The notes beneath the pieces were generated by a model. The model worked only from the letters and a program-made list of their open reading frames with translations, was not told the DNA's origin and ran no database searches. Below are positions 34,191 through 56,526 of a DNA stretch of 64,000 bases, one piece after another. Location of the stretch: contig CBDEFM010000002.1 of the NCBI GenBank assembly GCA_965237415.1, positions 768,001 through 832,000 of the forward strand. Reading direction: 5' to 3'. The translations under genes were made by a program, and so were the position numbers. The DNA is from Alphaproteobacteria bacterium (GTDB lineage: Bacteria > Pseudomonadota > Alphaproteobacteria > UBA828). Each line of letters begins with the position of its first letter. The stretch's first letter is position 1.

Positions 34191-34193
34191 CTA

Positions 34194-35790: not shown

Positions 35791-36003
35791 TCACTGAGGA
35801 CCGAGATCGCCGTGCGCCACCGGCCGCCCTGCGGCCCACTCGTCAAGGTCCACGACCCTCCACCTCACCGCCCGCTTGCCGATCTTCACCGGTTCCGGGA
35901 ATCGACCGGCGCGCATCTCGCAATAGATCCAGCTGCGCGATACGCCGAACCGCTCTTCGACCTCTTCGCGGCGCAAGAGCTCCCGCACTCCGTTCTCACT
36001 CAT
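35791..36003 (-). CDS. AlpA family transcriptional regulator / excisionase
   Basis: LLRREEVEERFGVSRSWIY..MRAGRFPEPVKIGKRAVRWR..DLDEW. Confidence 0.9.
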   Translation of the reverse strand: MSENGVRELLRREEVEERFGVSRSWIYCEMRAGRFPEPVKIGKRAVRWRVVDLDEWAAGRPVAHGDLGPQ

Positions 36004-36066
36004 CACCAGCCTCCAGTTTCCCCGCCTCCGATGATCTGCTGACACGCCACAGCCACCCCATCGCCG

Positions 36067-36756
36067 CTAAGGCCTTCGAACCACGAGCGGACAATTCACC
36101 TCGGCATCGGTCCGCATGGCCTCGCTCACGCAATCGACGACCGCGCGCCCGTAGTTGTCCCAGATATGGCCGCGCCAGCCGCCGGTGGGGTCGTGCAGCG
36201 GGATGACCTGGAACTGCTGCTCGACCAGCACGCCGAGCAGCAGGAAAGCGGGCAGGCACACCGCCATCGCGAGCGCCGCCAACCGCCGCCCCCAACGCCG
36301 CTCGGCCTTGGCCCAACGATCAAAATCCGCCCGGTGAGTCCCCAGCCCCTCCGACAGCTCCGCCGCCGCCCTGACCGCCCCCACATAGTCCGGGTCCGTC
36401 CCGCCCAACCGCTCCAGCGACCTGACGAGCTTCTCCCATTCCGCCTTGGACGGGCCCGGCTCGCGCTTCATGCCTTCCTCGACCAGCGACGAGACGTAGC
36501 GAACGACCTTCAGAACCTCGCCGAGCGCCTCCGCCTCGCCCGCAGCTGCCGTGCCGGGAGGCCGAGCCGGGCCCGTCTTCGCCTCTCCGCCCGGCTCCGC
36601 ATCGATGTTCCCTGCGACCGATGCACCGCTCTCGGCTTCCGTCCCCTCGTCAACGAGTGGCTCGCCGCCGGATGCATCCCACAGCTCGCCTTGCCGCTCC
36701 CCGTCCTCCGGGGACATCTCCGCGGCTTCTCTCGCGTCATCAGCGCCATCCGGCAT
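36067..36756 (-). CDS. hypothetical single-TM protein of the conjugation region
   Basis: GGAGGAG RBS; acidic N-terminus, one TM helix, C-terminal DPTGGWRGHIWDNYG..C...C. Confidence 0.65.
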   Translation of the reverse strand: MPDGADDAREAAEMSPEDGERQGELWDASGGEPLVDEGTEAESGASVAGNIDAEPGGEAKTGPARPPGTAAAGEAEALGEVLKVVRYVSSLVEEGMKREPGPSKAEWEKLVRSLERLGGTDPDYVGAVRAAAELSEGLGTHRADFDRWAKAERRWGRRLAALAMAVCLPAFLLLGVLVEQQFQVIPLHDPTGGWRGHIWDNYGRAVVDCVSEAMRTDAEVNCPLVVRRP

Positions 36757-36773
36757 CACGGGTCTCCTCCCCA

Positions 36774-38753
36774 TCACTCCACGCCTCCTCTCGCGATCGA
36801 CACCGGCCACCGCAGCCGCCCGCCCGCGCGCCCCTCCGCCGCCGCGCGTTCCTTGCGCAGCACGAACGGGTTGGGATCCGCCAGCCACCGGGCATCCGGG
36901 CGGCGCCAGTAGGGGGCGTGGTGCAGATAGAGCGCATCGCGCGGCATGTCCTTCGCGGCGGCGATCACGTACTGCCGGTCCGGCCCCAGGGTCATCAGCT
37001 CGTCGGGCGTCACCAGCCGCTCGCGGACCAGCGATGTCGACTCGCCGGCCTGCCACTGGGTGTTGGCGGTGACGATGCGGCTCTCGGCGACGGTGCCTGA
37101 CTTGCTCTCGGTCCGGCCTTCGAAGGTGGCGGTGCCGATGGCCCTGGAGAGCTCCTCGGCGCCCTCCGCGTCGGTCCTCGGGAAGCCCAGCACCTGGACC
37201 AGCTCGGCGAGGTGCAACAGCGTCTTGCGGTGCTCCTTGCCCCAGCTCGAATCCAGCGCCGAGATGGACTGTGCAAAGCACCAGAAGTGGACGCCCTTGC
37301 CGGCGGCCATGGTGTAGCCGTCCATGACCGGCTTGAGGAAGCCGATCCGCGGCATCTCGTCGATGACGATCAGCAGGTCCCGCTTCAGCGGCTTGATGCC
37401 GGCCACGGCGTTGGGGATGGCGACCCAGAGGCGCAGCCAGCCCTTGACGTGCTCGATGGTCTCCTCGGGCGCGACCACGAAGAGGTCGGTGTCGCCCTCG
37501 GCCAGCATCAGCGGATCGAAGCTTGAGGTCCGCGTGCTGGCGAGCAGCTCGGGATGGGTGAGGAAGGCGAGCTGATTGGCGATCGTGGTGAAGTTCGATC
37601 CCCCTTCCTCCTTGCCCACCTGGGCCTGGCGCTCGACCGCTATATGGGTGAGCCCCCCGGCGAAGCGATCTGTCCCCTGCACCAGTTCCGCAAACGCCTT
37701 CCTCTGCTCCGGCGCCATCGACAGCATGCGGTGCACGGTCGCGAGCTCGCGTCTCTTCGGGGGCTCCTTGAAACGCACCCAGGCCATGTAGCCGGCGATG
37801 ATCGCGCGTGCGGACTCGTAGAAGTGCCGGCTGTTCTGGTGCGCATCGGCCCGCGGCGGCGTGAGCAGCGCGTCGAGCAGGACGTTGATGTCGCGGACGG
37901 CGAGCCCCTCGTCGTCCCGTATGAATGCCAGCGGATTGTAGGTGGCGCTCCTCACTACGGGCAGATGGCACTGGGGGAACGCGTCCCTGTGGCCCTTCGT
38001 CACGCCGAAGGGATCGAGCAGCAGGACACGGCGGCCCATCTCGCGGCGGCGGCGCGCGGCGATGCACCAGAGCTCGCCGCGCGGGTCGATGATGACGGTC
38101 GACCCGTCGAAGCCCCGGTCTTCGGGCGAGAGCAGGTTGAGCGCGATGGTGGCGCCCTTGCCGGTACGCGGCGGGGCGACGGTGATGGCGGAGCCCTCGA
38201 GGGACCAGCCGATCAACGGTGCGTTGCCGCCACCGCCCCACTGGCCGAGCAGGATGCCCTTGCGCTTCGCGAGGCGGCGCAGGAAGCGGCGCCCGAGCAG
38301 GCTCGCCCTGCCGTGGAGGTCGGACTCGGCGCGCCTCCGCCGGTCTCCGCTCTTCAGATGCCTGAGGCCGGCGAGCGCCACCTCCAGCCAGAGCACGACG
38401 AGCAGCATGACGGCCGGGCCCGGCACGACGAGAACCGCCAGCCCCACCCCGTCCAGCCGGTCCAGCCACGCCATCGCGGCGCCGAACGACGGCGCCCCCT
38501 GCAGCGGCCGGACGATGCCGCTCCAGAACGAGGCGGCGGCGACCGCGAGCGCCCCGCCGTAGAGCCCGAAGCGGAACCAGAGGGCCGAGTCCTTGCGGTC
38601 GGCCGCCATGTAAGCGAGGAACGACGCCCCGAGGCCGAGGCCGAGAGCGGCGGCGGTCGCGTCCTCCGGCCGGTATCCGGTGACCAGCCACGCCGCCCAG
38701 CCGCCGCCGGCGGCGAGGAGAACGAGACACAAGCTCAGCTGGATCGTTCTCAT
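36774..38753 (-). CDS. VirD4/TraG-family type IV coupling protein
   Basis: N-terminal TMs, APPRTGKG Walker A, IIDPRGEL, YNPL, VIDEMP Walker B, FAQSISAL, RERLVTPDEL. Confidence 0.88.
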   Translation of the reverse strand: MRTIQLSLCLVLLAAGGGWAAWLVTGYRPEDATAAALGLGLGASFLAYMAADRKDSALWFRFGLYGGALAVAAASFWSGIVRPLQGAPSFGAAMAWLDRLDGVGLAVLVVPGPAVMLLVVLWLEVALAGLRHLKSGDRRRRAESDLHGRASLLGRRFLRRLAKRKGILLGQWGGGGNAPLIGWSLEGSAITVAPPRTGKGATIALNLLSPEDRGFDGSTVIIDPRGELWCIAARRRREMGRRVLLLDPFGVTKGHRDAFPQCHLPVVRSATYNPLAFIRDDEGLAVRDINVLLDALLTPPRADAHQNSRHFYESARAIIAGYMAWVRFKEPPKRRELATVHRMLSMAPEQRKAFAELVQGTDRFAGGLTHIAVERQAQVGKEEGGSNFTTIANQLAFLTHPELLASTRTSSFDPLMLAEGDTDLFVVAPEETIEHVKGWLRLWVAIPNAVAGIKPLKRDLLIVIDEMPRIGFLKPVMDGYTMAAGKGVHFWCFAQSISALDSSWGKEHRKTLLHLAELVQVLGFPRTDAEGAEELSRAIGTATFEGRTESKSGTVAESRIVTANTQWQAGESTSLVRERLVTPDELMTLGPDRQYVIAAAKDMPRDALYLHHAPYWRRPDARWLADPNPFVLRKERAAAEGRAGGRLRWPVSIARGGVE

Positions 38754-38799
38754 CGGATGTCGACCTCGCTCCTGTTCACGGGATGCATTGCGGGCACGG

Positions 38800-41085
38800 T
38801 CAGCTCCCGGCCCCGCCGCGCCGGCTCCGGGCGCCTATGCGGACGGCGCCGAGGCGCGAGATGCCGCCGACCGCCGCGCCGCCGGTGCGCTCGCTGCCGT
38901 CGTCGCCGGCGCCGGCGCGCCCGCCGATCCAGTCGAGAACGGCGGACGGCAGCAGGTCGATCAGCTTGAAGGAGGCGTTCATCAGGCCGTAGGCGATGAT
39001 GACGTAGAGGGCGAGCATTGCGAGGAAGCCGACCGGCCCGAGGCCGCCGGAGGCGCCGGCGTCGCGCATCTGCGGCAGCCAGACTTCGTTGAAGAGCCCG
39101 ATGCCGGCGAGGAAGACGAAGTAGCCGAGGATGAGGCCGAGCAGCATCAGCGCAGGCCGCAGCACCAGGGCGGGGAGGAACAGCCAGCCCTGGCGCGTCG
39201 CCTGGGTCGTCAGCCTGTTGCCGTCCTCGCGGGTCACGTGGGCGGCGGCAAACACGGTGACCGCCAGCACGGCGACGGCCACGTTGAGGATCCAGCCGAG
39301 GATGCCGAAGAGGAAGCGGATGAAGGGCAATGCCGGCAGCACGTAGGCGAGCACCGCGCCCGCGATGATGAGGAGCCCGAGCAGGGTCGAGACCAGGGCG
39401 TCGGAGACCTGCCAGGCGGACTCGAAGACGTCCAGTCCCTTGCCGATGAAGGGGATCGATTCGAGCAGCCCGGATCCCGTGGCGGCGCCCATGAGCGCGG
39501 CGATCGCCGCCAGCGCAGCGTTGAGCAGGCCGTGACCCAGCGCGGCGAGATCGGCGATGGGGTTGCCGCTGTCGGCGACGATCACGCTGTCGAGGTCGAT
39601 GAACTCGAGCAGGCCCGAGACCATGCCGCCGCTTCCGCCCGCCGCCGGCAGCGCGCCGGCGCCGGCGTTGGCGGCCGAGAGCAGCATGGGATGGTACCGG
39701 GCCGAGCGGGCGAGCTGGGCCGCGACGCCCTTCACCGCCGCGTCGGCCGACGGCACCCACTCCTCGAGGCTCGGGGTGGGCAGCGCCACGGACGGCACGT
39801 TGTGGGCGGCTGCCTGGAAGAGGCCGACGCGGTGGGCGATGGTGTTGAAGAAGCTCGCCGCCGCCATCCAGGATGCCTCGCGCGCGTCCTCGGCGACCAC
39901 CCGGGCGAGCGTCTCGCGCTCCTCGGACGCGGCGCGGGTGAGCGCCGCGTCGAGCGTTCGCGCGTAGGACCCCGCCAGATCCTGCGCAGCCAGCAGCGCG
40001 TCGATGTCGGGAAGCGGGCGGCCGTAGACCGGGGTGCCGGGCACGTAGTGGGCGGCGAGGCGGGCGGCGATGGCGCGGACCGCCGGAAGCAGGCTCGTGA
40101 GCGCCCGCCGGTGGCCTTGCGCCGCGATGCCGGGGGCGCCGTCGGCGTCCAGGCCCGAGAAATGGACGGCGCCGCACATGTCGTCCGGCATCCCGCCGCC
40201 CTCGCCGTCGTAGTGGTACGACACGGTGCCGTCGTCGTCGTCCTCGTCGATCTCCACGTAGGCGTCGTCGCCCGCCAGGGCGGCGCTCTCGTTGGCTGCG
40301 TGGGCGCAAGTCTCGGCGATCAGGGTGCGCGAGATGGCGGCCCGCCAAAGTGCCTCGCGGGGCCGCGGCACGATCGGCCGGCTCTCGGCCAGCGCCTCCT
40401 CGGAGAAGGGCTTCCAGACTGCGTTGGCGAAGTCGCCGCCGAGATGAGCCAATCCAACCACGGCATGCTGGGCGCCGTTCATGCCGCCCGGCAGCGGCGC
40501 CATCAGGGCGATCGCCGTGACGATGCGGACGATCGCCCAGGCGCCGAAGCCGAAGCGCCCCTCGCGCGCGGTATCGACCGTGCCGGCGGCGGCGTGCCAG
40601 ACCAGCAGGAAGCCCGCCAGCACCAGGACGCCGGCGTTGAAGGCGAAGAGCATGTCGCCGACGGCGGACGGGCGCGCCTGGCCGAGGCCGCCCAGGAAGG
40701 AGAGCACGTCGCGGGTCGCGCTGTCCGTGTCGGCGAAGAGGCCCCGGTCGATCGACTGCCCGAACGCCGGCTCCGGCGGCGGGACCGCGGCGAGGGCCAG
40801 GCCGGCGAGCGCCAGGACCGCGAGCAGAAGCAGCAATCCGGAACCGCTCCGGGTGCCTTCGCTCCGAGGCCCGGCACCCGCCGCACGACCCATTCCCGCC
40901 GCTCCGGGGGCCTTCCCCTCGCAGCCGTTCTGCATGACTGCCCGGTTTCCTGCAGCGTTCTCCCGACCGCCGGGCCGTGCCCGCCATGCCCCTTCCAGAT
41001 CCCGGAGCAGTGCAGCAGCCGATCCCACCGCCTCGGCGAGGGGTCGGCCGAGCTCCGGGGCGAACAGGAAGCGGAAGGGGCGCAT
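38800..41085 (-). CDS. dotA: DotA/TraY family inner-membrane protein
   Basis: FNAGVL...TAREG..G.W..VRIV.AIAL..P..GG...AQ; LAYVLPALPFIRF; LRPALMLLG; LIDLLPSAVLDWIGG. Confidence 0.85.
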   Translation of the reverse strand: MRPFRFLFAPELGRPLAEAVGSAAALLRDLEGAWRARPGGRENAAGNRAVMQNGCEGKAPGAAGMGRAAGAGPRSEGTRSGSGLLLLLAVLALAGLALAAVPPPEPAFGQSIDRGLFADTDSATRDVLSFLGGLGQARPSAVGDMLFAFNAGVLVLAGFLLVWHAAAGTVDTAREGRFGFGAWAIVRIVTAIALMAPLPGGMNGAQHAVVGLAHLGGDFANAVWKPFSEEALAESRPIVPRPREALWRAAISRTLIAETCAHAANESAALAGDDAYVEIDEDDDDGTVSYHYDGEGGGMPDDMCGAVHFSGLDADGAPGIAAQGHRRALTSLLPAVRAIAARLAAHYVPGTPVYGRPLPDIDALLAAQDLAGSYARTLDAALTRAASEERETLARVVAEDAREASWMAAASFFNTIAHRVGLFQAAAHNVPSVALPTPSLEEWVPSADAAVKGVAAQLARSARYHPMLLSAANAGAGALPAAGGSGGMVSGLLEFIDLDSVIVADSGNPIADLAALGHGLLNAALAAIAALMGAATGSGLLESIPFIGKGLDVFESAWQVSDALVSTLLGLLIIAGAVLAYVLPALPFIRFLFGILGWILNVAVAVLAVTVFAAAHVTREDGNRLTTQATRQGWLFLPALVLRPALMLLGLILGYFVFLAGIGLFNEVWLPQMRDAGASGGLGPVGFLAMLALYVIIAYGLMNASFKLIDLLPSAVLDWIGGRAGAGDDGSERTGGAAVGGISRLGAVRIGARSRRGGAGS

Positions 41086-41089
41086 GGCC

Positions 41090-42286
41090 TCAGTTCGTGC
41101 CTGCCGCCGGGTTCGCGAGGCCGGGCAGGCGGCGCATCTCTTCGACGCCGAGCGCGAGCGAGGCGGCGTCGATGGCGCCGCGCCGCTCCTCGGTGCGGTA
41201 GCGCTGCCAGTCGAGCATCAGCGAGACCGCCTGCATGACCGCCAGCTCGCGCAGCAGGTTTTCCTGGGACATCGCCTGGAGGCCCACGAACCAGTCGGGG
41301 TCCTCGAAGCGGCGGGCGGCCAGCAGCTCCAGCAACTCGTAGCCGCTGACCGGCGTGTCCGGATCGCGTCCGGAGTCCCGCGCGATCGCGGCAGCCCAGC
41401 CGCCCAGCGCCGCGCCCGGGGCGCGGAGCGCGCGGGCCTGCGCCAGGTAGTCGGCGGCCAGCGCGGCGCGGGCATCCGCCGACCGGGCGAGCAGGACGCG
41501 CCTGCGCTCGCGGTCGGTGTCGGCGGACGAGAGCGGCGGCGGGTCGTGCACCACGGGAGCGGCGAGGTTGCGCGAGAGCTCCACGGCCGCGCGCAGCTCG
41601 TGCTCGCCCGCAAAGGTGCGCCGGTCGAACAGGGTCGCGGCCCGCAGGTCGGCGCCGTGCAGCGCGTCGGCGCCCCGGCAGAGCCCGGACTCCTCGCCGG
41701 CGCGCGCGGCGTTGCAGTAGACGCGCGTCACCGTCTCGAAGCGCGCGGCGTCGCCGGCTGCGGCGCCCGGCCGGTCCACCACCGCGCGGTCGCCGGATAT
41801 GCGCCCGGCCTCGGCCCGGGCGGCGCGCTCCCGCGCACTCTCCGCTGCGGCATGCGTGCCGCCGAGACCGGTCAGTCCCGTGACCGCCTCGCAGGCGCTT
41901 GCGCTCGGCCTCCTGGCCCGCATGGCCTCGGTCTCTGCGGCCTCGCGGGCGATCTGCGCCTGCAGCTTCGTCTGCGAATCCAGCGCGCCGGTGACCGCCT
42001 TGGCGCTCTGCGCGATGTAGCCCGAGAGCTGGCCGGTCTGGAGGCGGAGCGCCTCGATGATGGCGCGTTCCATGGCGTCGATCTCGCGGGTGAGCCCGGT
42101 CAGCACCCGCGTCGCCTCGGCGCGGTCGTTGTCGGTGCGGTCGCAGCGGTGGGCTTCGGCCTCTCCCGGCAACAGCAGCGCGGCCGCCAGCAGCGCCGCC
42201 GCGAACATCGCGGCCACCGGCACCGCGCCGAGGCCCGCGGGTCTGCCGGTCGCGGCCCTTCGGGCCTTGGCCCTTCGGGCCCTCAT
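41090..42286 (-). CDS. IcmX/TraW-like secreted conjugation protein
   Basis: Signal peptide; C-terminal S.YELL...RRFEDPDW...LQ.MSQENLLRELA...ER; located next to dotA. Confidence 0.6.
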   Translation of the reverse strand: MRARRAKARRAATGRPAGLGAVPVAAMFAAALLAAALLLPGEAEAHRCDRTDNDRAEATRVLTGLTREIDAMERAIIEALRLQTGQLSGYIAQSAKAVTGALDSQTKLQAQIAREAAETEAMRARRPSASACEAVTGLTGLGGTHAAAESARERAARAEAGRISGDRAVVDRPGAAAGDAARFETVTRVYCNAARAGEESGLCRGADALHGADLRAATLFDRRTFAGEHELRAAVELSRNLAAPVVHDPPPLSSADTDRERRRVLLARSADARAALAADYLAQARALRAPGAALGGWAAAIARDSGRDPDTPVSGYELLELLAARRFEDPDWFVGLQAMSQENLLRELAVMQAVSLMLDWQRYRTEERRGAIDAASLALGVEEMRRLPGLANPAAGTN

Positions 42287-42801
42287 CGTCCGCCCTCCAC
42301 GACGTCCCGGAACCGCTCGGCCCCGGCCCCGCCCGCCCGGATGTCCTCCAACGCGTCGCGGCGCTCCCAGTCGACGTCGAGGCCGGGAAGGCGCGGCAGC
42401 GGCGCGGTGTAGACGGACGCATCCAGCGCCCGGCCGAGATAGCGGCGGTAGGCGTCGCGGGCGGCCGCGCAGAGGCGCCGGCGCGCGAGGTCGAGGATGT
42501 CGTCCAGCGCCCCCGCGGGGTCGAACAGGATGTCGAAGGCGCGGTAGTCGAACAGGTCGGCGATGCAGGAGAAGTCGAGGATCGAGTCGGGATCGCGGAT
42601 GCCCTGGTCCGGATGACGGATGATCGCGATGTCCGCCTCGACACCCCGCCGGGCGCTCCCGGCAAGCGCCTCGCGCACCTGCGGGTCGCAGCGGACGTCC
42701 GCCGCCGCCGGGCCGCTCGCAGGCGACGGCGGGGCCTGGGCCGCCGCCGGCGCCGCCCACAGCAGGAGAGCGAGCGCCGGCACGATCAGGACCCTATTCA
42801 T
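42283..42801 (-). CDS. secreted Cys-containing conjugation accessory protein
   Basis: Signal peptide; CDP, DSILDFSC and LC; translationally coupled to its neighbours. Confidence 0.55.
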   Translation of the reverse strand: MNRVLIVPALALLLWAAPAAAQAPPSPASGPAAADVRCDPQVREALAGSARRGVEADIAIIRHPDQGIRDPDSILDFSCIADLFDYRAFDILFDPAGALDDILDLARRRLCAAARDAYRRYLGRALDASVYTAPLPRLPGLDVDWERRDALEDIRAGGAGAERFRDVVEGGR

Positions 42802-43189
42802 CGCCGTCGGCGCCGCCGCCGCTATCCGGCCCGCCGTCCGCCGCCGGCTTGCGCGAGAGCACGTTGACCATGCCCTGCGGGCCCGACACCACGACCTCGG
42901 TGACCTGCCTCTTGTTCCCCTCCTTGTCGTCGAACGAGCGGGTGACGAGCCGGCCCTCGACCAGGACCGCCGCGCCCTTGCGCACGAGGTCCTCGGCCGC
43001 CTTGACCGAGCCCCCGTAGACGACGATCCGGTGCCATTCGGTCTTCTCTTCGGCCCCGCCGTCCTTGCCCTTCCATCGCCTCGTGGTGGCGAGATTGAAC
43101 GACGCGGTCCTGTCGCCGCTTTGCAGGGTGCGGCCCTCGGGATCGCCTCCCGCATGGCCCAGCAGCGTCACCCGGTTGATCTGCAACAT
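42794..43189 (-). CDS. ssb: single-stranded DNA-binding protein
   Basis: INRVTLLGHAGGDPE, FNLATTRRWK, EKTEWHRIV, KGAAVLVEGRL.TR. Confidence 0.93.
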   Translation of the reverse strand: MLQINRVTLLGHAGGDPEGRTLQSGDRTASFNLATTRRWKGKDGGAEEKTEWHRIVVYGGSVKAAEDLVRKGAAVLVEGRLVTRSFDDKEGNKRQVTEVVVSGPQGMVNVLSRKPAADGGPDSGGGADGDE

Positions 43190-43209
43190 CGCGTACCTCC
43201 TTTCGCGGT

Positions 43210-46780: not shown

Positions 46781-47320
46781 TCACCGGATGGTCAGCGCCG
46801 TGATGCCGAGGCTGGTCTGGACCGCGTCGATGACGGCGGGGAGGTGCCAGGCGGCGATGCCGCCGGCCATGTGGGCGAAGGCGCGGGCGCCTGAGGCCCC
46901 GGGCCTCGCGTCGGCGGCGGCGCGGAGCACGAAGGCGCCCCGGATGAAGGCGAAGAGGCCGACGAGGGCGACCAGGGTGAACACGGCGGCAAGCAGCGCG
47001 TCGTAGTCCGCGCCGCGCCCGCCGTAGCCGAGGCTCGCGCTTCCCGGCAGCGGGTCGGCGCCGAACAGGCTCTCGCTCGCAGCCCCGAGCCACGACGGCA
47101 GCGCCGCCAGGACGATACAGATCAGGAAGCTGAGCGCCGTGCCGCCGCCGGAGGGGGTGTGGAACTTGTCCTCCGAGGTCTTGAGCAGCCGCAGCAGCCC
47201 CTGGGCGAAGGCGAAGAGCGCGAGCAGGTAGCAGAGCGCCGAGATCAGCAGCAGGAGGCCGGGCTCGAGATCGCGGACCAGCGCGATCATGGCCTGGTCC
47301 AGGCCTCTCGACTCACCCAT
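46781..47320 (-). CDS. IcmC/DotE/TraQ-like membrane protein
   Basis: Four TMs; YLLAL...GL..L and LVGLFAFIRG..VL...AH..GG. Confidence 0.7.
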   Translation of the reverse strand: MGESRGLDQAMIALVRDLEPGLLLLISALCYLLALFAFAQGLLRLLKTSEDKFHTPSGGGTALSFLICIVLAALPSWLGAASESLFGADPLPGSASLGYGGRGADYDALLAAVFTLVALVGLFAFIRGAFVLRAAADARPGASGARAFAHMAGGIAAWHLPAVIDAVQTSLGITALTIR

Positions 47321-49416: not shown

Positions 49417-50054
49417 GAGCCGCCTCCCTTGCTGGCGATGAGCTGCTCTATGGCGATGCCGGCGGGGCGCTCGTCGAGCGCCACGCGCATCACCAGCACC
49501 TGCGCGATCAGCTCCTGGCTGGCCCTGCGCGTGCCGGCCGCGAAGGTGACCAGGATGGGGAACTCGACGGCCCAGCCGACGCGGCCTCGGAAGTAGCGGG
49601 TGTCCACGATCACCGGCGCGCCCCGGGCCACCGCCGAGGCGACCTGCAAGTTCTCGCGAAGCCGGTCCAGGAACAGGCTCTCGTCGAGGCCCTTGAGGAA
49701 GGACTCGTAGCCCGCGTCGGTAAAATGCTCGCGGATGCCCGCGAGCCGCAGCCGCCAGTCGTGATGGCCGAGGGTGAAGGCCTCGGTGACGGCGGAGACC
49801 GTCCAGTTGCGGAGCGCCGCGTCCGACATGATCGGCTCGTCGAGCGGCGTCAGCGGCACCAGCCGTCCGTCCGGCGTCGCGGCGACGGCGATATAGACGG
49901 TGGAGTGCAGGTAGACGTAGCCGGCGAAGGCGGCCGCCGTCAGCACGTTGCAGACCAGCAGCCAGGCGGCGGCCCGGCGCCAGCCGTGGTGCTGGTCGCG
50001 GTGGAAGGCGAATGTCCTGGCCGCGGCGCGCACGGCCTGCAGGCGGCTACTCAA
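49413..50054 (-). CDS. DotI/IcmL/TraM
   Basis: ATPDGRLVPLTPLDEPIMSDAALRNW...AFT...DWR..L....HFTDAGYESF..L. Confidence 0.9.
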   Translation of the reverse strand: MSSRLQAVRAAARTFAFHRDQHHGWRRAAAWLLVCNVLTAAAFAGYVYLHSTVYIAVAATPDGRLVPLTPLDEPIMSDAALRNWTVSAVTEAFTLGHHDWRLRLAGIREHFTDAGYESFLKGLDESLFLDRLRENLQVASAVARGAPVIVDTRYFRGRVGWAVEFPILVTFAAGTRRASQELIAQVLVMRVALDERPAGIAIEQLIASKGGGS

Positions 50055-51414
50055 GGCCCGCTTCCGGCCCGAGGGTCTCCGGCCCGAGGGTCTCCGGCAC
50101 GAGTGTCTCCGGCACGAGTGTCTCCGGCCCGAGTGTCTCCGGCCCGAGGGTCTCCGGCCCCAGGGTCTCCCGGAGCCAGGCGTCCGCGTCGTCCACGTCG
50201 CCGACGCGCATGCCGACGGTGCCCTCGCGCGTGCGCCAGACGATCAGCGGCACCGCGTCGGCGCCCCAGGCGTCGAAGAGCGCGTTGTTGCGGGCGATTT
50301 TTTCTGCGCCGCGTCTGTCCGCCGGGCGTCGGGCATCCTCGAACCAGGCCAGCGCCGGGTCGGGGCTCGCGGCGACGCCGGCGGCCAGCCGCGCCGCATC
50401 GGCGCCGAGGATCCCCGTGTAGCCCGCCGGACAGGAGCCGCTCTTCGTCTCCTCATGCGTGGTCTCGCCGATCTCGGGCTCGGGCGGCGGCGGCAGGGCC
50501 TCGCCGGTCCAGCAGCTCGTCGACACGAACTGCGGCGGCCCCAGGCTCTCGCCGCCGGCCGTCACCGTCTTGAGACGCCGCCAGACCTCGCGGCCTTCCA
50601 TCCGCCGGTCGTGCGGCGGTCCTGCGTCCCAGTGGCAGGCCAGCGTGTAGTGCTCCCACTGGCTGTAGTCGGCCCGGCAGAGGTCGATCGACAGCTCCCA
50701 GGGGCCGAAGACCGGATCGCCGGCCCGGTTGCCGCGCCCGTCATGGGCCTGCGTCGCCTCGCGGATCAGGGTGCGGCCGGCGCCGTGCTCGCCGTCGGGG
50801 CAGGGCTCCTCCCGGGTCTCGCGCGTCACCCGGTCGGTCAGGTGCACGAAGGGATCGCGCACCCCGCCCGCGAGCGCCGCGCGGCCCGAGGGCAGGGGGC
50901 CGCCGGCCCCCGCCGCCGACAGGCAGGCGGGCAGCGTCACCCCGGCGCGCCCCGCGCCGCCGTGCGCCGTGCCGCTCTCCAGCCAGTGCAGCACCGGGCG
51001 ATCGCCGCCGTCATAGGCGTGCGGTGCGGCATGCACCGCCCGGTGGTCGGAGCCTGTGCCCTTCAGCGCCTCCGGCGCCAGGTAGACCAGCAGGGTGTCG
51101 TCGCAGTAGCGGGCCTCGAGCCCGCGCGCCGTCCACCCCGCCTGCCAGCCCGTCGCCGCCGGCGGCACGGCACCGGGCCACGACGTGGCAGCGCCCGACT
51201 CCTCGAGGATGAAGGTCTCCAGCCGGCGCCACGCCGCCTCGACCGCGCCTGCGTGAGCCAGCGCCTCCTGGCGGTAGACCCGCTCGTCCCCGGAAACCTG
51301 GCCGTGCGCCGTCGCCGCTGCGGCCAGCACCGTCACGCTGGCCCCTGCCAGCAGCCACACCTGCATCCAACCCCTGCGCCGGGGCGTCCCTCTATCCACC
51401 GTCGTCCGTTCCAT
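50047..51414 (-). CDS. apparent fusion of a PilV-like Cys-rich minor pilin/adhesin N-part with a DsbG/DsbC-like C-terminal half
   Basis: Basic leader RRRG|WMQVWLL followed by a hydrophobic stretch; CPDGEHG and CPAGYTG repeats; then ILGADAARLAA...PDPALAW...IARNNALF..WG..AVPLIVW with no CxxC. Confidence 0.55.
   Translation of the reverse strand: MERTTVDRGTPRRRGWMQVWLLAGASVTVLAAAATAHGQVSGDERVYRQEALAHAGAVEAAWRRLETFILEESGAATSWPGAVPPAATGWQAGWTARGLEARYCDDTLLVYLAPEALKGTGSDHRAVHAAPHAYDGGDRPVLHWLESGTAHGGAGRAGVTLPACLSAAGAGGPLPSGRAALAGGVRDPFVHLTDRVTRETREEPCPDGEHGAGRTLIREATQAHDGRGNRAGDPVFGPWELSIDLCRADYSQWEHYTLACHWDAGPPHDRRMEGREVWRRLKTVTAGGESLGPPQFVSTSCWTGEALPPPPEPEIGETTHEETKSGSCPAGYTGILGADAARLAAGVAASPDPALAWFEDARRPADRRGAEKIARNNALFDAWGADAVPLIVWRTREGTVGMRVGDVDDADAWLRETLGPETLGPETLGPETLVPETLVPETLGPETLGPEAGLE
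50063..50170. repeat. 15-bp tandem repeat, about 7 copies, encoding ETL(G/V)P
   Basis: Unit GAG(G/T)GTCTCCGGC(C/A)C repeated with no spacers. Confidence 0.95.
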
Positions 51415-52804
51415 CGTCACCCTCCGTTCCTCCGATATGTCCGCTCGCGGCGCCCTCTCCCGGCGCCTCCCCGGAAACCACGCCGAGCGCACGGAGCTGC
51501 GATGCCGCGACCGTCACGGGCGCCGCCGGCCGGCCTTCCAGGCGCCATCCGCCCTCCGCCCCGCGCGTGAGCGCGGTGAGCTCCAGCCCGGCGATGCCGC
51601 CCGTGCGCGCAATGAGCCACGACAGCGGCCCGGGATCGTCGATCCGCACCGTCCATGCGCCCTTGGCGTCGCGGGCGTAGCCGAGCCGCGCGCCGCGCGC
51701 GCCGAGGACTCCGTCCACGGCCTTGCGCAGCGCGAGGAACGGCGGGACCGCTTCGTCCGCGATGCGCAGCACCGGCGCCAGCGGCGCCACGGCCCAGGCC
51801 CGCCCGTCGGCCACCGCGCCCGCGTGCCAGCGCGCGAGGTGGTTCTCGGCCAGGCGGCGCTGCATCGCCGCCGCATGGCCCGGCCGCAGGCGCCAGCGCA
51901 CCAGCAGCACCGGGCGGCCCGCGAGCTCGGGCCTGAGACCGGTCAGCTCGGGATCGGCGAAGCGGGCGGCGCAGGCGATGCGCTCGATCCGCCAGCCCGG
52001 CAGGAAGGGTGGACGCTCGATCAGCGCCCGCCGGCAGGCCGCGATCAGCGCGGCGCCGTCGACGGCCACCGCCGCCGTCGGCTCCGGGCGCAGCAGCGCC
52101 GGGCCCACCTCGGACACCGGCCCCGCGAGCCATTGCACGAGCGCGTCGCGCCCGAGCCAGGCCCCCGTGATGGCGGCCAGCACCGCCAGGCCGAGTGCGG
52201 CGGAGAGCCGCCGGCGTCCCTGCCGCCGTCCCGCCGCAGTCCGGCTCAGCTCGATCGCGGCGCCGGCCCGGGACGCGGCCTCGGCGATCGCCGCCGCATC
52301 CAGGGCCGCGATCTCCGTGCCGGGCGCGCGGAGCTCCGCCAACAGGCCCGGCGTCGCATGCAGCGCCCAGCCCAGCGCACGCGCGCGCTCGAAGGCCGCC
52401 AGCGCCGCCGCCCTGTCGTCGAAAACCTCGTCTCCGTCGGCCAGCACCGCCCCGCCTCTGGCTTTCACCAGCGCGTAGCGGCGCTGACCGCCGTCCGCCT
52501 CCCCCTCCACCAACGCCATCCAGAACTCGCCGTCGACATGATCGAGCAGCGCCAGCGCCAGCGCCGGCAGAGCCTCAGGCTCAAGACCTGCAAGGCCAAG
52601 ACCCTCAGGGCCAAGACCCGCAGGGCCGGCGCCCTCGGGAGCGTCCGCCCCGTCACCTGCCGCGAAGCCGGTGCGATCGCCGTGGTGCACGCACCAGGGC
52701 CGGCCCAGACGCCGCGCCGCGCGCGCGGTGGCGCCGGGGCCGACCCTGGCCAGCCAGTAGAGGCCCGCGGCAAAACGCCGGCCGCCGACGGCGATGACGC
52801 TCAC
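51392..52804 (-). CDS. pilO: type IVb pilus accessory protein PilO
   Basis: VIAVGGRRFAAGLYW; V..R.GAVLADGD; central TM; C...L...P..LPGW....C; directly after the secretin gene. Confidence 0.7.
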   Translation of the reverse strand: MSVIAVGGRRFAAGLYWLARVGPGATARAARRLGRPWCVHHGDRTGFAAGDGADAPEGAGPAGLGPEGLGLAGLEPEALPALALALLDHVDGEFWMALVEGEADGGQRRYALVKARGGAVLADGDEVFDDRAAALAAFERARALGWALHATPGLLAELRAPGTEIAALDAAAIAEAASRAGAAIELSRTAAGRRQGRRRLSAALGLAVLAAITGAWLGRDALVQWLAGPVSEVGPALLRPEPTAAVAVDGAALIAACRRALIERPPFLPGWRIERIACAARFADPELTGLRPELAGRPVLLVRWRLRPGHAAAMQRRLAENHLARWHAGAVADGRAWAVAPLAPVLRIADEAVPPFLALRKAVDGVLGARGARLGYARDAKGAWTVRIDDPGPLSWLIARTGGIAGLELTALTRGAEGGWRLEGRPAAPVTVAASQLRALGVVSGEAPGEGAASGHIGGTEGDDGTDDGG

Positions 52805-54429
52805 AACGCCTCTCCCGGGCTCTCGGAGAGGCCGAGCGGCGCGCCGACCGACGCCGTCACCAGCAGCACCTGCTCGTGCCGCGCCAGCGCTCCCCGGCGG
52901 GTGCCGCCGGGAAGCGGGAAGTCCTCGTGGAAGGTGCCGGAGCCTTCGGCCTCGGCGCGGGATCCCGAGAAGCCGCTCACCAGCAGGGTCTCGCCGCGCC
53001 CGATCTTCTGGCTCACCTGCACCGCCCGGCTGGCATAGGCCGGGAGCTGGATCGACCGCCCGCCGGATGAGAACTCCCGGAACACGGGGCGGTCGCGCAG
53101 GGACGCGAACAGCCGCACCAGCACCTCGCCGGGGCCGGTGATACGCGGGATGTAGCTCATGGCGAAGCCCGACGAGACCGTGCCCGGCACCAGCTCGGTC
53201 TGGGCGATGCCGTCGCCCGCCGTGGTGCGGCTCTCCTTGAGATAGGCCTCCTTGAAGAGCTCGAAGAACTGCGCCGGCTTGCCGTTGAGCGAGGGGATGT
53301 CGGCCGAGAGCACCCGCGACACCGTGCCCGCCCGCGAGAGCGCCCGGACGGTCGCCGACAAGGTGTCGCCTACCGCCGCCGACGGCCTGATCAGCGCGAT
53401 CGACTCCGGCGACACCGCGAGCTCCGCCGACGACCCGAACAGCTCGGCCACCGCCGCCGCGATGCCGATCCCGTAATCCGCCTCGCGCTCGCGGCGCACC
53501 GAATAGACGTGCACCGAGAGCGTCACCGGGCGCAGCACCTCGCGGTTGAGCCAGGAGAGGAACGCGCGCACCCGCGCCACGTCGCCGGGCGTGCCGGTGA
53601 CCACGAGAGAGGCGCTCGACGGCGCCGCCGCCACCACAGCCCCCGGCCCGGCCAGCGCCCTGGTCTGCGCCTCGATCTCGGGCCAGGGGTCATAGTCGGT
53701 CTCGCTGGCGATCGACTGGCTGGTCGTCACCGCGCCGCCTTCCTCGCCGCCCTCCGCCCCATCGTCGGTCGAGGCCGACGCCGCGTAGCGCTGCCTCCCC
53801 GCAAGAGCATGGATGCGGAACGCCACCGAGCGCCGCCGCACGATCTCGATCTCTTCGCGGTCCTCGTCGTAGCGCCACTCGTAGCCGGCCGGCCGCGTCC
53901 AGGCGTCGAGCAGCGCGTCCAGCGGCCCGGTCCAGACCCCGCCTTCCGGCGAGAGCCGGTCGATCCCGGCCAGGGAGTCCCGGCGGGACGCGCCCGCGCC
54001 CTCCGCTGCCGGGCCGGTGAGGCGCACCGGCAGCCCCGTCGCCGCCTCGATGCGCCGCGCCAGCACCGCAGCCTCGGCGATCCCGGCGAGCGGCAGGGTC
54101 ACGGCATCGGCCTCGAGCAGCCGTGCCGGGAGCGCGCGCCGGGGCGCTTCCTCCAGACGCGCGAGCCCGAGCCAGGGGCGGCGCTCGACGACCCGGATCG
54201 CCGAGAAGCGGGGCGCCGGCGCCGCGTCTCTCAACGCCGCCACCCGGCGCGCCGCCTCCTCGGTCTCGCCGCGCGCGAGCTCCAGCGTCGCATCGCCGCA
54301 GCCCGCGAGCAGAGCGGCGGCGAACACGACCGCAGCCGCGCCTCCCGGCCCGATCCCCAAGTACCGCTCAAGTATCCGGAGGGCGATGGTCCGGCTCGCC
54401 CGAAACCCCAAGTAGCGCCGCGCCGTCAT
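52801..54429 (-). CDS. pilN: type IVb pilus secretin PilN (lipoprotein)
   Basis: Lipobox LLAGC; LVVTGTP..V, LNGKPA, ELVPGTVSSGF, SIQLP, GETLLVSGF. Confidence 0.85.
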   Translation of the reverse strand: MTARRYLGFRASRTIALRILERYLGIGPGGAAAVVFAAALLAGCGDATLELARGETEEAARRVAALRDAAPAPRFSAIRVVERRPWLGLARLEEAPRRALPARLLEADAVTLPLAGIAEAAVLARRIEAATGLPVRLTGPAAEGAGASRRDSLAGIDRLSPEGGVWTGPLDALLDAWTRPAGYEWRYDEDREEIEIVRRRSVAFRIHALAGRQRYAASASTDDGAEGGEEGGAVTTSQSIASETDYDPWPEIEAQTRALAGPGAVVAAAPSSASLVVTGTPGDVARVRAFLSWLNREVLRPVTLSVHVYSVRREREADYGIGIAAAVAELFGSSAELAVSPESIALIRPSAAVGDTLSATVRALSRAGTVSRVLSADIPSLNGKPAQFFELFKEAYLKESRTTAGDGIAQTELVPGTVSSGFAMSYIPRITGPGEVLVRLFASLRDRPVFREFSSGGRSIQLPAYASRAVQVSQKIGRGETLLVSGFSGSRAEAEGSGTFHEDFPLPGGTRRGALARHEQVLLVTASVGAPLGLSESPGEAL

Positions 54430-54459
54430 CCCGTCGGTGCCCCTGCACAAGCTGCGAAG

Positions 54460-54916: not shown

Positions 54917-54954
54917 TCCCGGATCCCCACAGTCCCGGATCCCCACGGTCCCGG
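54917..54954. repeat. 16-bp tandem repeat, about 2.4 copies
   Basis: TCCCGGATCCCCACAG TCCCGGATCCCCACGG TCCCGG. Confidence 0.75.
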
Positions 54955-54961
54955 CAGGCCG

Positions 54962-55165
54962 TCACGTGGCCTCGCCGATGAAGCGCTGCTTGCGCTCCGC
55001 CATCCAGCCGTCGAGGTCGACGATGTCGTAGATCACCTTGCGCCCCACCTTGCTGTAGGGCGGCCCGTCGCCGGTCTCCCGCATGCGGTGGAGCGTGCGC
55101 GGGCTTATGCGGAGATAGGCCGCGGCCTGCCTGGCATCGAGATAGCGCGGACTGGGCTCGCTCAT
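54962..55165 (-). CDS. HTH_17 excisionase-like protein (RdfS-like)
   Basis: RYLDARQAAAYLRISPRTL.RMR..GDGPPY.KVGRKVIY...DLDGW. Confidence 0.88.
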   Translation of the reverse strand: MSEPSPRYLDARQAAAYLRISPRTLHRMRETGDGPPYSKVGRKVIYDIVDLDGWMAERKQRFIGEAT

Positions 55166-55480
55166 GGCGGGGCTCCCCGGATCGGTTCCGACCGCAGTGA
55201 ACCACCGCGCCCGCCCGCAAGGCAGGGACGAACTGCGCCTCCCGCTGTCGTCCGCCCTGGAGCTGCCGGGAGATGCCCCGAGCTGCCATCCCCGGCCGCT
55301 CCCGGATCCGGTCGCCGCATTCCCATACGGGTTCGCTGCGCCGCGCCGCCTCTTGCCGGCGGCGGCCCATGCGGCGCCCGCTCTCTCGGGCGGGGACGAA
55401 CCGGGGAGCGCTGCGGGATGCCGCCGCACGAGACGCCCGGTCTCGAGGCGCGAGGCCGCGAACCGCGGCGCGCCCGTGTA

Positions 55481-56014
55481 TCACGCTCGCTGCGCCCCGC
55501 CGGCAACCGGGCTCTTGCGCGCCGCCATCCAGGCGTCGAGATCACGCACGTCGTAGATCACCCGCCGTCCCACCCTGATATGGCGCGGCCCCGCGCCCTC
55601 GGCACGCAGCCGGTCGAGCGTTCTCCGGCCGATACGGAGATAGGCCGCCGCCTCCCCCGCATCGAGATAGCGCCGGGCGATGCCGCCCGCGCCGCCCCCG
55701 GGCTCCGCGAACAGGCCCGCCTGCTCGGGCGGCCGGAACGACGCCTCCCGTCCGCCGTCCTCCCTCCGGCGCCGCGTCCGCGATCCGCGCCCATGCCTGC
55801 GATGCGCCGGCCCGCGGCCCCTCACCAGGTCGCGGTAGCCGCCGTTCATCAGGAGAAGGGAGGCGTCGGCGCGCCGCCGCACGACGCCGCGCTCAGGCGC
55901 ACCGTCGTGCCAGCCGGCCTCGATACGGGCCGCGCCGAAGAAGTCGACGGCGATCAGACGGGTGGACTTGCCTGCCAGCTTGCCGTCGAGGGCGAGCAGC
56001 AGCTCGCCCTCCAG
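55481..56014 (-). CDS. DUF2285 activator domain fused in frame to an HTH_17 excisionase-like domain; no start codon of its own
   Basis: Hand translation: LLLALDGKLAGKSTRLIAVDFFGAARIEAGW...VVRRR...LMNGGYRDL, continuing without a stop into RYLDAGEAAAYLRIGRRTL...GP...VGRRVIY...DLDAW. Confidence 0.75.
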   Translation of the reverse strand: MEGELLLALDGKLAGKSTRLIAVDFFGAARIEAGWHDGAPERGVVRRRADASLLLMNGGYRDLVRGRGPAHRRHGRGSRTRRRREDGGREASFRPPEQAGLFAEPGGGAGGIARRYLDAGEAAAYLRIGRRTLDRLRAEGAGPRHIRVGRRVIYDVRDLDAWMAARKSPVAGGAQRA

Positions 56015-56526
56015 AGCCCGGGGGACGGAGCGTCTCCCGCATCCGGTCCCGCCACGCTCGTCAGATCCTCGACGCGCGCGAGCTGCGTGCGCAGCGCCAG
56101 GTCATAGGGCAGGTAGAGCGCCAGCCCTCCCGCCGGGTCGAAGGCCGCGCCGTCCTCGATCCACACCTGCCCGGCGGCGTGGCCGCGCTCGACCCTGAGG
56201 ACCAGCGCGCCGTCCGTGAGCCGCAGCCCCGAGAGCGTCCCGCCCTCGCTCCGCACCAGCTCGGCGAAGGGCGGCGTCCCCTTGCGGCCCGCCACGCCCT
56301 CCAGCATCGGCAGGTCCGCCCAGAACGGCGACGCAGGGCCGTCCCCGGACAGCGGGTCCTCCCAGGCCAGCAGGCCCCACGACGCGGCTCCGAGGTCGGC
56401 CTCGCTCTGCGTGCGGATCGGGAAGGGCTCTCCCGCCAGGGGCGGAACCCCGGCGGCCTCCCTCCACCAATCCGCGATGTAGCCCGGGTGCCGCTTGAGG
56501 ATGCGCCAGGCGCTGACCGCGTCCAT
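55954..56526 (-). CDS. DUF6499-like N-terminal part of an FseA-type ICE activator
   Basis: AWRILKRHPGYIADW...WGLLAWEDP...PFW; overlaps the DUF2285 frame. Confidence 0.7.
   Translation of the reverse strand: MDAVSAWRILKRHPGYIADWWREAAGVPPLAGEPFPIRTQSEADLGAASWGLLAWEDPLSGDGPASPFWADLPMLEGVAGRKGTPPFAELVRSEGGTLSGLRLTDGALVLRVERGHAAGQVWIEDGAAFDPAGGLALYLPYDLALRTQLARVEDLTSVAGPDAGDAPSPGLWRASCCSPSTASWQASPPV

Follow-up and report, generated by a model that had tools for sequence, protein, structure and literature searches.

Conjugation channels of mating-pair formation type I (MPF_I) are known from IncI1 plasmids of the R64/ColIb-P9 type and share many of their components with the Dot/Icm machinery found in Legionella and Coxiella. 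Chromosomal MPF_I elements are described in excerpts of two surveys (PMC3158045, PMC5587801) as very rare, with none delimited. Here we describe a 64,000-nucleotide stretch of an alphaproteobacterial genome, positions 768001-832000 of contig C2 (the window below), from a source genome of 4.75 Mb in two contigs with 66.7% GC. It contains about 20 co-oriented genes on the minus strand, running from 56523 to 35791, which we read as the transfer module of an integrative and conjugative element (ICE) of ~78.8 kb at the 3' end of a tRNA-Thr(CGT) gene. The element would belong to an MPF_I family, and this copy would have decayed through a deletion of ~14.2 kb and insertion sequence (IS) insertions; we give this reading a probability of about 0.8. 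From their gene content, intact members of the family are predicted to combine an MPF_I channel, an R64-like type IVb pilus, a type IV coupling protein (T4CP) of the VirD4/TraG type or, in a sister subfamily, of the TraD/TrwB type, a TrwC (MOBF) relaxase, and FseA-like and RdfS-like regulators encoded upstream. The component kinds are already known, and it is their combination, an ICE with an MPF_I channel under FseA/RdfS control, that is new. Our literature searches found no paper on such an MPF_I ICE family in Alphaproteobacteria, in agreement with a preliminary description of the locus that had called the class little described.

Comparison with described systems

IncI1 plasmids, represented by pSE11-1 of E. 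coli SE11 (NC_011419.1), carry the same gene families as the island family in the same order: pil, traH(DotD)-traI-traJ-traK, traM-traN-traO, traQ, a DUF6750 gene, traU, traW and traY. IncI1 is a plasmid, however, whereas the element in the window sits in the chromosome as an island that has an integrase and tRNA attachment (att) sites. IncI1 also relies on TrbC(DotL)/TrbA(DotM) and the NikB (MOBP) relaxase, whereas the island has a VirD4/TraG-type T4CP and TrwC (MOBF). Unlike IncI1, the island has a gene for a single-stranded DNA-binding protein (SSB) within the operon and regulators of the FseA/RdfS type, and the present copy is without traH-K equivalents and without most pil genes. The Legionella and Coxiella Dot/Icm systems share DotA, DotG, DotH, DotI and the IcmB-type ATPase with the island, to which its relatives add DotB, DotC, DotD and IcmT. 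In contrast to Dot/Icm, the island family is without DotL/DotM, and DNA transfer is indicated by its relaxase, SSB, integrase and excision regulators. Equivalog models specific to Legionella score the island proteins far under their cut-offs (for example T4SS_DotA, 124 vs 500 bits).

On the regulatory side the closest likeness is to ICEMlSymR7A of Mesorhizobium. According to excerpts of PMC10359603 and PMC11963761, it also has an activator with DUF6499, middle and DUF2285 domains encoded in two frames, an RdfS-like winged-helix-turn-helix (wHTH) gene first before the conjugation genes, a tyrosine integrase and a tRNA att site. Its channel is listed as MPF_T in the part of PMC3158045 covered here, whereas that of the island is MPF_I, and its FseA changes frame by +1 at UUUC beside WGL, whereas the island shows a -1 change before DUF2285. 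Plasmid records matching the island ATPase number 3766, all below 60% identity. The closest plasmid TraU-type ATPases include those of pRlX5 from Rhizobium leguminosarum (NZ_CP140867.1; 36% identity over 96% of the query), the best plasmid match, and plasmid 1 of Brucella anthropi (NZ_CP008817.1; 33%), the latter annotated with DotI, DotH, TrbI-like and DotA/TraY genes. Identity between these two clusters and the island is just 33-38%, and pRlX5 keeps a TrbC/DotL-type coupling protein near its ATPase (tblastn 2e-55), whereas the island family has none.

Gene content of the transfer operon

The co-oriented run was delimited by frame analysis of third-position GC content (GC3) and by codon-score gene calls, and it stands as the preliminary description had reported it (Table 1). 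Profile searches agreed with its naming of the alpA, virD4, dotA, ssb, dotG, dotH, dotI, pilN and HTH (helix-turn-helix) genes and of icmC, which corresponds to TraQ; the families named icmD, icmX/TraW and pilO drew weak matches only. The gene called icmB encodes a homologue of IncI1 TraU. TrbE/VirB4 profiles matched its product weakly, Pfam gave nothing and a PDB sequence search gave nothing at E<=1, so the identification comes from tblastn to the annotated IncI1 traU only. An IncI1 DUF6750 gene is found at the position matching 46305-46664.

In its excerpted form, the MPF_I rule of PMC3158045 asks for at least four type-specific genes from TraI, K, L, M, N, P, Q, R, W and Y. The operon has clear TraM/DotI, TraN/DotH, TraQ and TraY/DotA, with weak TraR (DUF6750) and TraW, and it has a TraU/IcmB-type ATPase in an IncI-like gene order. 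By gene content, then, the operon is classed as an IncI/Dot-Icm-like (MPF_I) type IV secretion system (T4SS) with a VirD4/TraG-type coupling protein. The channel type named in the preliminary description was thus the right one, with a gene order colinear with pSE11-1, but the channel is incomplete, DotD, DotC, DotB and IcmT being gone.

Table 1. Features of the window (coordinates are window positions unless C2 is given)
Feature	Position	Strand	Evidence and remarks
attL-like 15-bp direct repeat, left island end	25286..25300		exact 15-mer, 2 copies per 4.75-Mb genome
Cargo gene, 906-aa PPC-domain protein	26056..28776	-	PF04151, 1.2e-10; in lower-GC stretch
IS debris: IS66-family pieces and transposases	31927..35344		PF05717, PF01527, PF02371/PF01548, PF13358
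Extra tRNA-Gly(UCC) carried by island	32085..32156	-	ARAGORN; Rfam tRNA, 56.7 bits
IS110-family transposase	32877-33947	-	Pfam, within IS debris
IS630/DDE_3 transposase	34265-35344	+	Pfam, within IS debris
AlpA-family small HTH regulator	35791..36045	-	PF05930, 7.8e-14
Conserved 230-aa protein downstream of T4CP	36067..36759	-	without Pfam match; tblastn in 15/17 loci with VirD4-type T4CP
VirD4/TraG-type T4CP	36774..38753	-	PF02534 8.7e-41, 140.7 bits; PF12696; PF10412; NCBIfam TraG/VirD4
DotA/TraY	38800..40836	-	TIGR04346, 1.8e-76; start codon uncertain, frame open to 41085
TraW/IcmX-like	41090..42223	-	NF033888 E 1.7e-4, weak; position of IncI1 traW; kept in relatives
172-aa conserved protein at IncI1 traV position	42283..42801	-	without family match; 44-75% identity in relatives
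In-operon SSB	42794..43189	-	PF00436 / TIGR00621, 5.4e-33
TraU/IcmB(DotO)-type VirB4-family ATPase, 1026 aa	43210..46290	-	tblastn vs IncI1 TraU 28%, E 1e-42
DUF6750/TraR-like small membrane protein (earlier icmD)	46305..46664	-	PF20535 E 5.7e-4, below cut-off
TraQ (IcmC/DotE-like)	46781..47320	-	NF033883, 3.8e-10
TraO/DotG (TrbI/VirB10-like)	47313..48440	-	NF033884 3e-13; NF033900 8.9e-11; PF03743 5.1e-5
TraN/DotH(IcmK)	48430..49389	-	PF12293, 1.4e-42
TraM/DotI(IcmL)	49413..50033	-	PF11393 5.8e-40; NF038072 4.2e-38
Chimeric open reading frame, 439 aa, weak DsbG-like C-terminus	50047..51366	-	spans deletion junction ~50405-50413
PilO-like, 470 aa	51392..52804	-	PF06864 E 0.021; orthologue L037:15907-17319 adjoins PilN
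PilN-family type IVb pilus secretin/lipoprotein	52801..54429	-	TIGR02520, 3.4e-48
RdfS-like winged-HTH excisionase, 67 aa	54962..55165	-	PF12728 7.4e-13; best PDB match RdfS 8dgl, 2.3e-10
FseA frame B: DUF2285 (residues 28-94) and RdfS-like HTH_17 (residues 145-195)	55481..56101	-	PF10074 3.6e-12; PF12728 1.1e-10
FseA frame A: FseA/RovC-like N-terminal (DUF6499-like) and middle domains	55954..56523	-	motifs; RovC profile match
Candidate -1 recoding signal: UCCCCCGGG, 5-nt spacer, 10-bp GC hairpin	55988..56025	-	sequence and folding
Adhesin-like giant gene (4389 aa), 3' part	56771..64000, on to C2 837940	-	Calx-beta, fn3, cadherin-like, PKD, SWM repeats

Island limits and integration site

The GC content is 73-76% (~75%) across the operon, the genome as a whole having 66.7%; the rise begins at about 36 kb and lasts until the window ends. 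A 15-bp direct repeat marks both limits of an island of ~78.8 kb, which extends from window position 25286 to C2 872089. Its left copy lies 33 bases past the stop of an ABC-permease gene, at a drop in GC content; its second copy, C2 872075-872089, forms the last 15 bases (3' end) of tRNA-Thr(CGT). Adjoining this tRNA gene is a tyrosine integrase of the P4 type (C2 870722-871999, L003:6722-7999) with Arm-DNA-bind_3, Phage_int_M and Phage_integrase domains. In a congener, G410, the flanks show 96% identity, and homology stops at C2 793257 and restarts exactly at 872075. Between the same flanks G410 has 13.25 kb and another congener, G411, about 51.6 kb, and the locus is therefore a variable hot spot; in a third, G415, the flanks are on separate contigs.

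Beyond the right end of the window, the island encodes a TrwC (MOBF) relaxase-helicase of 1377 aa (L002:3841-7974; PF08751 6.6e-66, PF13604 1.7e-41), in which an N-terminal TrwC relaxase domain is joined to a C-terminal SF1 helicase, as expected of MOBF. The integrase and relaxase that the preliminary description had suggested looking for outside the window are thus both present, together with the att repeats. The element has a recombinase at one end, direct repeats flanking the insertion site, and a relaxase (TrwC), a T4CP (PF02534) and a VirB4-family ATPase (TraU-type). By these criteria its sequence is that of an ICE in everything except a complete mating-pair apparatus.

A deletion in the pilus and channel genes

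When compared by blastn with a related locus, L037, window 49595-50413 corresponds to L037 1-744 and window 50405-54349 to L037 14920-18872, at 78% identity each, and the window therefore lacks ~14.2 kb that the closest relative has. With this stretch, 10 pilus and channel genes have been lost completely and two others have lost an end. The completely lost ones include the genes for the T2SSE pilus ATPase, a PilS-like pilin, PilV (Shufflon_N) and the prepilin peptidase, all four present in a related genome, G001, as well as those for DotD, DotC/TraI, DotB/TraJ and IcmT/TraK. The open reading frame (ORF) at 50047-51366, which had been described as pilV-like, turned out to be an in-frame chimera: its residues 1-321 correspond to the N-terminal portion of a protein of 537 aa from G001, and residues 335-411 to the C-terminus of the G001 DsbG/TrbB-like protein. 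A short imperfect repeat, CCGAGG(A/C)TC, is found at the junction in both parent sequences.

The missing genes were not recovered elsewhere. A tblastn search of the whole genome with nine proteins of relatives found only the C-terminal 95 aa of the DsbG-like protein, a search for the DotB family across the genome was empty, and the core channel genes have no paralogue anywhere else in the genome. Since 24 of the 27 related loci longer than 20 kb have retained DotB and 23 have retained DotD, the full gene set is the ancestral state. Thus DotB/TraJ, DotC/TraI and DotD/TraH, which relatives have, are found neither in the window nor in the genome. From the R64-type set (PilN, PilS, PilQ, PilU, PilV) only PilN is left, along with the PilO-like gene, and the type IVb pilus earlier attributed to this copy does not hold up, its pilin, pilus ATPase, prepilin peptidase and PilV being deleted. 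The complete mating-pair-formation set by which an ICE is judged self-transmissible is therefore lacking, and the copy has probably lost self-transmission. Because integrase, RdfS, relaxase, T4CP and both att repeats are kept, this gene content would allow excision and mobilisation in trans at most. These appear possible because, besides the island's own copies, the genome holds eight TrwC matches and three T4CP-like genes, and a TraC of the F type lies on its other contig, C1. Broken or partial copies are common in the genus, with split or stop-containing matches in G412, G417, G426 and G429.

Coupling protein and relaxase

The coupling protein was assigned to the VirD4/TraG family from its PF02534 score, for which the cut-off is 20.1 bits, and from its PF12696 (TraG-D_C) score of 70.7 bits. 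In the PDB search it matched TrwB and Cag5, with no DotL entry. It showed no similarity to IncI1 TrbC (BLASTP E 3.7), which itself has no PF02534 match, and with IncI1 TrbC, TrbA and NikB as queries tblastn gave no match either in the genome or in 33 related loci. The preliminary description was therefore correct in naming a VirD4 protein, not DotL/TrbC; DotL/TrbC and DotM/TrbA were not found in the island, and the empty TrbC/TrbA searches indicate that DotL/DotM is absent family-wide.

Among the 27 long loci, 17 have a VirD4-type T4CP and 10 a TraD/TrwB-type T4CP (PF10412, 453 bits in L018). In eight of the latter 10 (subfamily B), a TrwC relaxase follows the T4CP within the locus. Another locus, L004, has a TrwC-type relaxase 55% identical to that of the island and convergent to the operon. 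Judged from these sequences, the coupling module has been swapped at least once within the family. The family offers material for studying how a type IVB channel works with a T4CP of the VirD4 or TraD type and a MOBF relaxase.

A separate observation concerns L031, in which a 642-aa ankyrin-repeat protein (L031:20252-22180) is encoded ~850 nt downstream of the VirD4-type T4CP. In the source genome, TrwC has nine matches in all. Such transfer genes occur on C2 and also on C1, there at about 305-345 kb and 575-645 kb. Two of the T4CP/TrwC pairs on C1 have an adjoining SSB gene with 66-68% identity to the island SSB, and the F-type TraC is read in two adjacent frames (C1 313236-314364).

FseA-like and RdfS-like regulators and a -1 frame change

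Upstream of the operon the gene order is fseA-like, rdfS-like, transfer operon. The activator is encoded in two frames, A and B. Frame A contains the motifs AWRILKRHPGY and WGLLAWEDP, of which the first corresponds to AW-x-FL-x-RNP-x-Y in relatives (general form AW-x-[FI]-L-x-R-x-P-x-Y) and to the AWEFLRRN-like motif of the FseA N-terminal domain, DUF6499. Alone, frame A matched nothing in Pfam even at E<=10, but a 10-sequence profile built from it and nine homologues matched RovC (6xz5, E 9.7e-8), and PF20109 (DUF6499) was found at E<=0.1 in seven of the ten sequences, the window's own copy not among them. Frame B encodes the C-terminal DUF2285 domain (PF10074, 47.3 bits against a cut-off of 26.4). 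The FseA-like identity given in the preliminary description is supported once both frames are considered; the need for a frame change had been missed. Both HTH_17 domains have Mesorhizobium RdfS (8dgl) as their best PDB match, at 1.4e-7 for frame B and more strongly for the 67-aa gene, for which the RdfS-type assignment was confirmed. This small wHTH gene stands directly upstream of pilN and is the first before the transfer genes; the excerpt of PMC11963761 likewise places RdfS as the first gene ahead of the conjugation genes.

Frame B is -1 relative to frame A, and the change falls in the linker ahead of DUF2285. It is the stretch separating the middle domain from DUF2285 that the covered text of PMC10359603 names the 'short linker'. 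Ahead of DUF2285 the frame B translation has no Met, and its sole Val is a GTC codon. The frame relation was examined in 25 loci. Both parts were adjacent at 16 places, and the relation was -1 at 13 of them (the window, L039, L041, L043, L044, L045, L049, L050, L051, L053, L054, L057 and L063), some of which share a genome or family. Of the remaining three, L055 and L064 appear in frame and one, a degenerate second copy in the source genome with two TGA stops, is +1. Among the other loci, three had no frame A match and five had frame A but no frame B. The -1 relation is kept at 35-69% protein identity, and in 20 of 20 comparisons divergence was highest at the third codon position, each part in its own frame. 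We considered L055 as a natural fused form and rejected it, as an indel after the hairpin joins its frames and a segment, ELLLALDG, is lost. Contigs of other sequencing runs from two studies (X2 record 16, X4 record 32) cover 55527-56983 and 53906-56956 and show no indel at the junction, which makes an assembly error in a homopolymer run unlikely.

At the window junction a C5G3 run (UCCCCCGGG) is followed by a 5-nt spacer and a 10-bp GC hairpin, and L049 and L044 have the same arrangement. Against 200 shuffled sequences the hairpin folding gave z -2.36 for the window (3/200 fold as well) and z -4.25 for L044 (0/200); the value for L049 was 0.43 with an input cut through the hairpin, which is visible in the sequence. 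The published FseA frameshift is different. It is +1, at UUUC beside WGL after DUF6499, as described in the parts of PMC10359603 and PMC4755241 covered here, and PMC10359603 reports, in the same excerpts, the UUUC site in about 61% of 4709 FseA homologues. In the window, WGLLAWEDP is read through in frame and no such +1 site was found. In the literature passages and search listings covered, we found no mention of a -1 form of FseA. A conserved -1 split, at another site and in the opposite direction to the +1 change, suggests that a low-frequency translational gate on ICE activation has evolved more than once. Automatic pipelines will miss both halves of such an activator.

Two more FseA-like N-terminal copies lie at C2 28472-29856 of the source genome (L056, L061), one of them with two TGA stops and +1 to a DUF2285 remnant; they probably represent another decayed element. 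In all four contig sets from other runs, insertions of 7 and 15 nt relative to the window occur at 55443 and 55474, just downstream of the frame B ORF.

Relatives and distribution of the family

Out of 8000 scored candidates, homologues of the ATPase formed 471 clusters at 90% identity; those listed, 120 in number, show 67-99% identity, and many of them lie on megabase-size contigs. The preliminary description had proposed a search for syntenic copies, and a scan of one genome per species yielded 33 related loci, all in metagenome-assembled genomes (MAGs), with up to three loci per genome. Their record titles name Alphaproteobacteria, Rhodospirillales, Kaistiaceae, Defluviicoccus and, once, Dehalococcoidia. 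DotA is present in all of the 27 long loci, synteny extends from the DsbG-like gene as far as DotA, and an SSB gene occurs in 22 of the 27. In some relatives the TraU-type ATPase and SSB are a single ORF of 1208-1259 aa (for example L018:9992-13633), and six of the 120 listed homologues have this fusion (PF00436; P0087, P0090-P0093, P0106). Upstream of DotI, relatives encode a PilV-like Shufflon_N protein, a prepilin-peptidase/TcpQ fusion, DotD and TraI/DotC, and also DotB/TraJ (TIGR02524, 8.9e-80), IcmT/TraK, a TcpQ-like protein and a full 298-aa DsbG/TrbB-like protein. PilN, the 470-aa gene and the regulators were not found within 10 kb in the 33 related loci; in G001 a PilN orthologue is located about 16 kb upstream of the DsbG-like gene.

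Within the genus, 14 of 21 genomes (the source genome included) have the ATPase, several with up to six matches. An even sample of the class gave an ATPase match in 30 of 401 genomes, the source genome and the unpublished G045 included; identity reached at least 74% only in the source genome, G011, G160 and G196, and was 38-45% in the rest. The family is thus found so far in uncultured Alphaproteobacteria only and is widespread there, and its presence, often in several copies, in 14 of 21 genomes of one genus alters the picture of chromosomal MPF_I elements as extremely rare.

Two further observations concern the margins of this distribution. TraU/IcmB-type ATPases at 38-45% identity occur in 25 genomes of the class sample, G045 among them, most of which are small (1.1-4.1 Mb); by sequence, such matches suggest that the class has further type IVB systems that are more distantly related. 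The Dehalococcoidia record is a complete syntenic copy (L024, CBDHFB010000011.1) on a 442-kb contig with 64% GC and an ATPase 59% identical, which reflects either cross-phylum transfer or a binning error.

Proposed mechanism and alternative explanations

From the known functions of the FseA, RdfS, TrwC, VirD4 and IncI families, a chain of events can be proposed for intact members. Rare -1 recoding would join the DUF6499/middle frame to the DUF2285 frame to give the full activator, and this would switch on the pil/tra operon together with rdfS. Excision from the tRNA gene would then be carried out by RdfS and the integrase, TrwC would nick oriT, the T4CP would dock the relaxase-bound single strand to the MPF_I channel, and the in-operon SSB might coat or accompany the strand. 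A broader proposal, to which we give somewhat less than even odds, is that a large undescribed ICE family of uncultured Alphaproteobacteria makes MPF_I, taken to be nearly confined to plasmids, a common chromosomal conjugation system. In it, DotL/DotM would have been replaced twice, by VirD4/TraG-type and by TraD/TrwB-type proteins, each with a MOBF relaxase, and -1 recoding of FseA at a homopolymer run (C5G3 with a hairpin, or A6-A7) in the linker ahead of DUF2285 would form a second frameshift gate, placed independently of the known +1 site.

Several observations weigh against the ICE reading or parts of it. The 13.25 kb between the shared flanks of G410 is unrelated DNA, so that G410 provides no empty site and the left limit of the island rests on the 15-bp repeat and the synteny break; moreover, the sequence beside the G410 tRNA gene is unlike that beside the attL-like repeat. 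The integrase is at least 35 kb from the transfer genes, across low-GC cargo, and could belong to a neighbouring tandem island. At the deletion, none of the listed pieces among the short Logan contigs of other sequencing runs spans 50405-50413, and the deletion thus rests on one assembly and on the clean in-frame chimera. As for recoding, the putative slip runs differ between loci (A6-A7 in L039, L041 and L043, A5 in L054, G5 in L053 and L057), and no run was found at the junction in L045, L050, L051 and L063, so that run and hairpin are not universal.

The missing bridging contig would also be explained if the 14.2-kb gap had arisen in assembly, or were found in a minority variant only, and the organism held a full-length element, and an 889-nt contig from run X2, of another study, behaves as expected of such a form in that sample: it matches 50404-50895 (492 nt) and then turns into unlike sequence exactly at the breakpoint. 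We nevertheless regard this as improbable, because assemblers do not join sequences at overlaps as short as the 8-9-bp imperfect repeat at which the fusion occurred, the fusion is in frame with typical coding GC3 on either side, the genome is in two contigs, and broken copies are common in the genus. Very improbable, in our judgement, is the view of the preliminary description, in which a hybrid ICE able to transfer itself is intact and has both a Dot/Icm-type channel and a type IVb pilus in working order. Every family it named except pilV is detectable and the integrase, relaxase, T4CP and att repeats are there, but the locus lacks the four Dot/Icm-type proteins along with pilin, pilus ATPase, prepilin peptidase and PilV, genome-wide searches for them (including that for DotB, which most long loci keep) were empty, and the pilV-like ORF is chimeric. 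The least probable alternative is that the system is or was a Dot/Icm-like translocator of effectors for host interaction and not a conjugation system. Giant adhesin-like genes adjoining the cluster in the window and in G001, and the ankyrin-repeat protein after the T4CP of L031, would fit it; the linkage of TrwC in the island and L004 and its place directly after the T4CP in most subfamily B loci, the SSB gene in the operon, the FseA/RdfS-type regulators, the integrase and the tRNA att repeats, and the lack of a DotL/DotM adaptor complex by tblastn, argue for DNA transfer.

A weightier rival, though still a doubtful one, concerns only the activator: the two frames of fseA might be used without recoding, as pseudogenes or as two separate proteins. 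The variable slip sequences speak for this, as do the indel that joins the frames of L055 at the cost of a segment and the different direction and site of the known +1 frameshift (PMC10359603, PMC4755241, in the parts covered). Against it stand the -1 relation conserved over such divergence, the third-position-biased divergence in both parts, the lack of a Met ahead of DUF2285 in frame B, and the statement, in the excerpts of PMC10359603, that every bona fide DUF6499 domain found had a DUF2285 next to it. The run, spacer and hairpin of the window, L044 and L049 also favour recoding. In the reading we prefer, a decayed ICE of an MPF_I family, the family-level features and the -1 activator split are the parts worth following up. 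For annotation, the locus illustrates that a convincing run of T4SS genes can be a dead copy.

Other genes of the island and its flanks

The 4389-aa adhesin-like gene lies directly upstream of the fseA-like gene. Its counterpart in position in G001 is a 2698-aa cadherin/SRCR/Calx-beta protein, which is separated from the regulator by a group II intron reverse transcriptase. To the right of the window the island also includes a LysR fragment, a C-terminal piece of a Strawberry-notch helicase, a second SSB, a Toprim protein and a YspA/SLOG protein. Low-GC (52-58%) cargo at L002:8212-15263 (C2 852-859 kb) comprises genes for cNMP-binding, WYL, prokaryotic E2 (E2-ntca / E2-Crich) and PIN proteins, which are possibly defence-related, and IS elements are also found in the low-GC cargo between relaxase and integrase.

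The tRNA-Gly(UCC) gene of the island is surrounded by IS66 fragments. A blastn search of the genome with its sequence found no further copy, and another tRNA-Gly(tcc) is at C2 2478010. A 98-nt 'tRNA-Gly(gcc)' called by ARAGORN at 55442-55539 was rejected, as Rfam gives it no support. Left of the island, an ABC transporter operon (window 21927-25253) ends after two permease genes in the source genome; the extra 13.25 kb of G410 includes an ABC-ATPase-like sequence that is absent at this locus in the source genome. Also in the chromosomal flank, outside the island at window 13248-14335, are a PemK/MazF toxin gene and a VapBC pair (PIN with RHH). On the other side, past the integrase, the housekeeping genes hemY, hemD, hemC and tsaD follow.

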